From Candidatus Multivorans sp. (GTDB lineage Bacteria > Acidobacteriota > Thermoanaerobaculia > Multivoradales > Multivoraceae), in assembly GCA_965203495.1 (NCBI GenBank), contig CBDBDB010000007.1:324959-388958 (forward strand): a DNA stretch of 64,000 nt. Reading direction: 5' to 3'. The notes under the pieces are model-generated. The model made no database searches. It worked only from the letters and a program-made list of their open reading frames with translations, and was not told the origin of the DNA. The translations under genes were made by a program, and so were the position numbers. Below are positions 39,313-39,325 of this stretch, piece after piece (within the stretch, counting starts at the first letter, position 1; each line of letters starts with the position of its first letter).

Positions 39313-39325
39313 CCCCCCCCCCCCC
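39313..39325. repeat. Homopolymeric C13 tract
   Basis: It was counted directly in the sequence. It lies 32 bp upstream of the adhesin GTG start. Confidence 0.9.

Follow-up and report, generated by a model that had tools for sequence, protein, structure and literature searches.

A poly-C tract precedes a once-interrupted autotransporter gene

The locus described here lies in a 64-kb stretch of contig CBDBDB010000007.1 of Candidatus Multivorans sp. (64,000 nt, referred to below as the window, with coordinates counted from its first letter), and it combines an uninterrupted run of 13 cytosines, CCCCCCCCCCCCC (C13), at 39313-39325 on the + strand with a large adhesin-like gene that follows it (Table 1). 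A preliminary description of this DNA had pointed to a 13-C run 32 bp upstream of a giant adhesin gene, and both the coordinates and the composition statistics bear this out. After C13, the first start codon of the long open frame is GTG 39358, exactly 32 nt further on. Within the window, which has a G+C content of 68.5%, C13 is the sole homopolymer longer than 7 nt, and the number of C runs of at least 13 expected there is 0.027 if bases are taken as independent and 0.0017 under a first-order Markov model. Across 96 unrelated high-GC control loci (723 kb) we found just four C or G runs of at least 9 nt; two of them lie no more than 60 nt from the end of their locus (and contig), and one is in a locus chosen for its C run. 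Homopolymers of about 7 nt or more are long enough to slip; the window tract exceeds that length, is uninterrupted and is unexpected for the composition of the DNA.

The gene downstream of the tract is a type Va autotransporter, adhesin-like, with FN3 and Ig/Calx-like repeats, and it is interrupted once. Its first open reading frame (ORF), opened by the GTG, runs for 624 codons to a TGA at 41230-41232, after which the same frame resumes, giving about 2167 codons in all (39358-45861) with FN3 matches and a PF03797 barrel; passenger and barrel are thus not on one uninterrupted polypeptide in the window. Judged by inspection, the N-terminus looks like a Sec signal peptide: the n-region is basic, the core is hydrophobic, and there is an AxA site. 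The autotransporter beta-barrel occupies about 44761-45345 (PF03797, 35.2 bits against a cut-off of 26, residues 88-282 of the translation of 44500-45858), and the C-terminus of the protein reads ...TIRW. The interrupting TGA lies inside a complete FN3 domain at a place where homologous domains have W or Y, which points to a nonsense change (TGG to TGA) or an error in the consensus; the split gene itself could be a pseudogene, an artefact of such an error or a case of read-through. The adhesin is also split in four of the related loci introduced below (L002, L003, L004, L109) and uninterrupted in four others (L033, L065, L089, L113). Two modules of about 666 nt lie in the passenger (region 39513-40792), and the stretch 42820-44393 consists of a 321-nt unit repeated 4.9 times (92% matches); these tandem repeats are possible substrates for recombination-driven length variation.

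Table 1. Features of the window at and near the C13 tract
Feature	Position	Strand	Remarks
C13 homopolymer, slippage-prone tract of the conserved leader module	39313-39325	+	homologous tracts of 6-33 C at at least 17 other loci
Conserved 3' leader GAAATTCAGAATCC-GGGTGCGGGGCTGATCCG	39326-39357	+	86% identity to L033, tract to GTG+100
Conserved GTG and Sec-type signal peptide MGLLGRPTRRLSAALAAVFLLTLAAALAPRAAEA	39358-39459	+	signal peptide judged by inspection only
First 624 codons of the autotransporter passenger	39358-41232	+	two ~666-nt tandem modules; ends at in-frame TGA
Rest of FN3 domain, Ig/Calx-beta-like repeats and C-terminal beta-barrel	41233-45861	+	same frame continued
5' remnant of HMG-CoA synthase gene (~65 of ~420 codons)	39026-39222	+	own ribosome-binding site AAGGAGA-N6-ATG
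90-nt spacer, neither hmgS nor significantly like family leaders	39223-39312	+	shuffle test, blastn-short
IS1182/IS5-like transposase gene, split in two	36029-38837	-	36029-37072 DDE_Tnp_1 (PF01609); 38484-38837 DUF772 N-terminus (PF05598)
IS256/Mutator-family transposase gene inserted in the IS1182/IS5-like gene	37130-38515	-	PF00872, E=3.5e-44

The tract is shared by a family of leaders and varies widely in length

Protein homologues of the 624-aa ORF led us to loci in the long-read metagenome assembly ERZ24894574, and species-representative genomes were scanned with the DNA pattern GGGYGCGGGGCTGAKCCGG, the family being told from many chance high-GC matches by the flanking signal-peptide sequence. 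Two further look-ups beyond the pattern scan added L126 and L127. A protein search with the 624-aa ORF in species-representative genome contigs gave no match, and scans of metagenome contigs for the family gave one chance match (L125). Exact look-ups with four window proteins (the 624-aa ORF, a 1480-aa ORF, P0001 and a 425-aa NTP-transferase) matched no indexed contig. Altogether, a leader homologous to that of the window is present at at least 17 other DNA-verified loci in the chromosomes of metagenome-assembled genomes (MAGs), labelled as Alpha- and Gammaproteobacteria, Pseudomonadales, Binatia, Thermoanaerobaculia and Ca. Poriferihabitaceae (Table 2). For the habitat, the literature offers one anchor: the MAGs of Ca. 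Poriferihabitaceae were recovered from a HiFi/metaMDBG metagenome of a sponge (PMC12859430).

Table 2. Number of cytosines (n) in the tract of the window and of related loci
Locus	Label	n
Window		13
L002	Alphaproteobacteria, same replicon as L024	11
L003 (= L008)	Alphaproteobacteria	11
L049	Alphaproteobacteria	10
L024	Alphaproteobacteria	13
L065	Alphaproteobacteria	18
L033	Gammaproteobacteria	12
L005	Ca. Poriferihabitaceae	16
L013, L113	Ca. Binatia	14, 15
L060, L109	Pseudomonadales	21, 13
L068	Thermoanaerobaculia	6
L089	Gammaproteobacteria	27
L126 (two leaders)	ERZ24894574 ctg6917l	19, 33
L127	ERZ24894574 ctg6702l	10

Over 18 DNA-verified loci the tract takes lengths of 6, 10-16, 18, 19, 21, 27 and 33 C, and it is uninterrupted in all but one of about 25 family loci (P0121 has an interrupted tract; L004 and L001 have kept the signal peptide and have no tract). 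The differences extend to paralogues that share a genome and have near-identical flanks: L002 and L024 (C11 and C13), L003 and L049 (C11 and C10), L013 and L113 (C14 and C15), and the two leaders of L126 (C19 and C33). In L002, the C11 run is followed by sequence nearly as in the window. A search with the leader peptide returned 11 further short ORFs annotated by gene callers, which end at the conserved stops described below and whose poly-Pro stretches imply 10-19 C; two of the poly-Pro predictions were borne out on DNA (C19 in L126, C10 in L127).

Measured from the tract up to a point 100 nt beyond the GTG, identity is 77-93% across differently labelled taxa and 82-93% in more closely related pairs; over the next 600 nt it is usually about 72-76%, the background of such alignments. 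One pair departs from this pattern: L113 (Ca. Binatia) and L060 (Pseudomonadales) share 96% nucleotide identity over the first 600 nt after the signal peptide, with leaders that are 82-86% identical. This suggests recent transfer between phyla together with shuffling of cassette and passenger, or else mislabelled or misassembled contigs. Family genes have a G+C content of 65-69% even where their flanks are at 56-59%.

Several other features were seen on contigs that carry family members. L126 holds a second leader (4600-5193) with the longest tract, C33, followed only by a 138-aa ORF, a truncated copy 1.3 kb upstream of the full-length C19 copy; in the mobile-element-rich stretch upstream of both leaders, a perfect inverted repeat, GTTTCACTG-G15-CTAG-C16-CAGTGAAAC, spans 2879-2931. 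In L065 a second C run, C15 at 5038-5052, lies just downstream of the adhesin gene between TTGACT and TATTGT, with a spacer of 20 nt (17 nt at C12); this run has the look of a true promoter-spacer homopolymer, and the gene that follows may be what is left of a transposase. Genes for Porin_4 and SlipAM (Slam-like) proteins stand upstream of family members on two contigs (L002 3277-9727, L127 1-3147), and the adhesin genes may travel in a larger outer-membrane gene island.

The leader cassette has a conserved three-frame geometry

Intact family leaders follow one order: a Shine-Dalgarno sequence (SD), an ATG, a leader ORF, (C)n, 24-34 nt (66 in the two Binatia loci), GGGCGCGGGGCTGAGCC-GTG, and the signal peptide. 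A strong SD (GGGAGGA or a close variant) stands 7-10 nt before the ATG (GTG in L068) in 12 of 15 loci, and in distant members it forms the 5' limit of homology, the sequence before it being locus-specific. The leader ORF opens 42-109 nt upstream of the tract and in many loci reads MTRxPGDVGMHDLRLSGRG.SASRAR....

The number of cytosines sets which of three frames would be read across the GTG, and both out-of-frame stop codons are conserved in the family. Among loci found by the DNA pattern, which is neutral as to frame, five are in frame with the adhesin from the leader ATG (L002, L003, L049, L068, L113), in three (L033, L060, L065) the frame closes 4 nt ahead of the GTG, at a TGA that is part of GCTGAGCC, and in four (the window, L013, L024, L109) it closes 31-33 nt past the GTG, at a TGA that is part of GCCGCCTGA. 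We also considered an RNA element and rejected it: RNAalifold around the GTG gave a GC-rich consensus with essentially no covariation, and Rfam a sub-threshold hammerhead match only.

Our favoured explanation, which we hold to be probable though by no means assured, is that C13 is the site of slipped-strand mispairing in a conserved leader cassette that lies 5' of a horizontally shared family of large FN3/Ig-like type Va autotransporter genes in host-associated MAGs, where it would act as a stochastic switch of translation, the window copy being truncated and most likely silent or decaying. Gain or loss of C at replication would change the frame for ribosomes begun at the leader ATG. In one state they would carry on through the signal peptide and into the passenger; in another they would stop at the conserved TGA 4 nt before the GTG, with possible reinitiation; in the third they would overrun the GTG start and stop at the conserved TGA 31-33 nt beyond it. 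Adhesin expression would in this manner be switched stochastically in translation, locus by locus. The sequences show the tract, the conserved cassette, the hypervariable length between loci and the three-frame geometry; slippage within populations, the identity of the ON state and any effect on protein level are inferred from them.

The window copy and the gene remnant upstream of it

In the window copy, a 66-codon hmgS remnant and a further 90 nt take the place of the native SD-ATG leader. The proposal that a remnant of an hmgS-like gene lies upstream of the tract was confirmed: residues 6-64 of the ORF at 39026-39223 can be aligned to residues 7-65 of an HMG-CoA synthase of 419 aa (PDB 5hwp, E=5e-7), and there is a weak match to PF01154. 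The full-length enzyme (about 390-420 aa, with its catalytic core) is not present; only residues ~1-65 align, and the gene is a fragment. Its frame runs on through the C tract (open frame 38906-39391) to a TGA at 39389-39391, which lies in the +2 frame inside the signal-peptide region and terminates the upstream ORF at the present C13.

It had also been suggested that the tract, placed where hmgS homology is lost, marks a rearrangement junction. That homology ends near 39222, which leaves 90 nt between it and the tract, and C13 is therefore not at the site of hmgS loss; BLAST similarity to the leader family begins at 39311-39316, which makes the tract the 5' edge of the module kept in the window copy. 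A junction at the tract is therefore sound as regards the family leader and mistaken as regards hmgS. Compared with nine family leaders, the 130 nt upstream of the window tract aligned no better than shuffled sequences (z<=2.8, versus z=33 for L033 against L002), and in blastn-short the 90-nt spacer gave low-complexity matches only. A MAFFT alignment had suggested that these 90 nt derive from a family leader that has diverged and whose SD has degenerated, a reading that the same shuffle test did not bear out.

When translation was simulated from the hmgS start codon, tracts of C11, C14 and C17 led to fusion with the adhesin, C12 and C15 to a stop at 39351-39353 (in the 3' leader, 4 nt before the GTG), and C10, C13 and C16 to the stop at 39389-39391. 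Ribosomes starting on the remnant would thus find the window in the third of the states set out above. Taken together, the loss of the native start region, the frame that stops after the GTG, the nonsense codon and the nested insertion sequences next door suggest that the window copy is probably silent or decaying.

Alternative explanations for the tract

Several observations weigh against a translational switch. Frame states of 5, 3 and 4 are what a non-coding tract would give as well, and the even spread over three frames fits stochastic switching and, equally, an unconstrained tract. Differences in the leader peptide are not concentrated at third positions, and counts by codon position and of synonymous and nonsynonymous changes make the ATG frame no better than the others; leader indels show no enrichment for multiples of 3, on which ground the idea that all of them preserve the frame was rejected. 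The GTG is conserved in 14 of the 15 loci, gene callers start the long ORFs there, and SD-ATG is absent from L005 and the window, so the GTG may be the real start. The length variation seen is that between paralogues and orthologues; most loci come from ERZ24894574, and the taxon labels are those of record titles only. Finally, the PacBio HiFi consensus of long homopolymers can be off by 1, which makes ON/OFF calls at single loci, C13 included, uncertain.

The conservation of the GTG, the leader without a protein-level selection signal and the two loci without SD-ATG make viable a variant of the translational model: control by an upstream ORF in the 5' untranslated region, with the GTG as the true start. 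The tract would then set where the leader ORF ends (coupling or reinitiation, occlusion, fusion), and expression would be graded, not binary. A G-rich stretch 9-12 nt upstream of the GTG, the conserved TGAs that bracket it, the lack of amino-acid-level conservation in the leader peptide, and L005, which has a promoter and no SD-ATG and still a long open ORF from the GTG, are all consistent with this variant. We nevertheless think it unlikely, given that the SD before the GTG is poor compared with the GGGAGGA before the ATG and that the TGAs fall in codons conserved anyway (GCT GAG; CTG AAG/AGC). We give a little more credit, while still doubting it, to the possibility that the window tract is an inert relic or rearrangement scar with no present function, which may only mark a fragile, recombination-prone site. 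Family homology begins at the tract, hmgS is truncated and the spacer between them matches nothing; the in-frame TGA replaces a conserved W or Y; and an IS256 element sits inside an IS1182-like one directly upstream. Other rearranged copies break at the 3' edge of the tract (L004) or about 20 nt upstream of it (L005), a hint of a fragile site. Set against a relic are the 13 uninterrupted C that the tract still has, the three-state geometry, which is preserved, and the good ribosome-binding site of the upstream ORF; the TGA, for its part, may reflect a recent mutation or an error in the consensus.

Two further explanations place the effect of the tract in transcription. A promoter-spacer switch of the fim2/fim3 type would put it between promoter elements, or between an activator site and the -10 box, its length tuning transcription from the gene that starts at GTG 39358. 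The tract does lie 24-34 nt upstream of a conserved GTG directly before a canonical signal peptide, where gene callers start the long ORFs, and there is overlap between the 10-18 C of fim (PMC1891110) and family tracts of 10-19 C. However, in the window, L002 and L060 a scan for sigma-70-type promoters (sigma-70 consensus only) found no pair of -35 and -10 hexamers around the poly-C. L005, whose SD-ATG leader is replaced, has a 10/12 promoter (TTGGAA-17-TATAAT), and the -10 box of this promoter ends 45 nt before the tract begins. Of the 15 loci, 12 have the conserved SD-ATG ahead of the tract, and lengths spanning 6-33 C would hardly suit a spacing optimum. The SD-ATG and the L005 promoter place the tract in transcribed, probably translated, sequence, and the lack of flanking hexamers fits a translational switch of the nalP/mspA kind, not a promoter spacer of the Bordetella fim kind. 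The preliminary description had assumed the latter, which we now regard as very improbable; its proposal of slipped-strand phase variation stands in so far as a hypermutable repeat (6-33 C between flanks that are 82-93% identical) is tied to a surface-protein gene, and falls as to the promoter mechanism. Alternatively, RNA polymerase could stutter on the C run and produce mRNAs with mixed numbers of C, so that all frames would be expressed somewhat. Runs of at least 9 identical bases are known to cause transcriptional slippage in bacteria, and long intact ORFs persist behind out-of-frame tracts in L033, L065, L126 and L127. Yet the length differences between paralogues are observed directly in DNA, and replication slippage is needed in any case; we see little chance that slippage in RNA is the explanation.

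Genomic neighbourhood of the window locus

Beyond the split transposase genes listed in Table 1, two adjoining IS256-family transposase ORFs (24088-25155 and 25146-26501), an AbiEii-like AAA ATPase (27647-28945) and a type III restriction-modification pair (DNA methylase 29059-32010, Res-like helicase 32332-35829) lie upstream of the adhesin, and the region 24088-35829 is variable or defence-like. Sugar-nucleotide modification genes follow the adhesin (46035-51115). A 65-nt, non-coding-looking element at 22797-22861, directly upstream of a sulfatase gene in the window, is 87.7% identical to 7082-7146 of L068 (Thermoanaerobaculia) on the opposite strand, where it stands about 560 nt upstream of the family leader; the element is not a tRNA.

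Discussion

The closest known systems are the Neisseria meningitidis autotransporters NalP and MspA, whose coding sequences contain poly-C tracts of 6-15 (NalP) and 6-14 (MspA), varying by allele, with only every third length ON (PMC3723659). Like them, the present family consists of type Va autotransporters with an uninterrupted poly-C in the ORF leading into the protein, here of 6-33 C. Unlike them, it has the tract in a dispensable-looking leader before the signal peptide, followed by an internal conserved GTG that two out-of-frame stops bracket. The cassette, moreover, is present in several copies per genome and spans differently labelled phyla, and its hosts are uncultured host-associated MAGs, not a human pathogen.

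The C-stretch of fim2, fim3 and fimX in Bordetella pertussis and B. bronchiseptica (10-18, up to 19, polymorphic among strains) lies in the promoter and alters transcript abundance (PMC1891110). It shares with our family a long poly-C upstream of a gene for a surface structure and differs from it in that no sigma-70-type promoter elements flank the tract here, which is downstream of a conserved SD-ATG. The leader also resembles ESPR (PF13018) as an N-terminal extension before a classical signal peptide in large autotransporters; unlike ESPR, it is poorly conserved in amino acids, and it gave no match to ESPR or any other family in Pfam.

In Neisseria, opa (CTCTT repeats) and pilC (poly-G) carry the repeat in the region that codes for the signal peptide. 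As in these genes, the repeat of the present family sits at the very 5' end of outer-membrane adhesin genes that occur in several copies, each of which would switch independently by frame; it differs in standing before, not within, the signal peptide, in repeat type, in the in-frame alternative start that follows it and in its phylogenetic spread. Homopolymer phase variation is a textbook property of host-adapted pathogens such as Neisseria, Bordetella, Campylobacter and Helicobacter. We know of no report of it in symbionts of sponges or other invertebrates, and a full-text literature search on phase-variable autotransporters in sponge symbionts returned no paper. The evidence supports, in kind, a known type of switch in an unusual ecological and phylogenetic setting, probably translational rather than promoter-based.

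We tentatively suggest, while thinking it less likely than not, that the unit of about 250 nt comprising SD-ATG, leader, (C)n, GTG and signal peptide is a mobile, cross-phylum cassette for expression, secretion and switching that recombines onto varied passengers. It would furnish uncultured sponge- or host-associated bacteria with a surface repertoire of several copies, each switching on its own among three translational states (fusion, coupled reinitiation, occlusion), a phasome in mutualists, not pathogens. The cassette would account for the many 44-57-aa hypothetical proteins and apparently split adhesin genes annotated in these MAGs. If the cassette operates in the way put forward here, unrelated members of one host-associated community would share a ready-made stochastic switch for giant adhesins, with several independent copies per genome, and this would bear on the ways in which symbionts alter the surface they present to host cells, phages or neighbours, and on how regulatory and secretion modules travel horizontally apart from their cargo.
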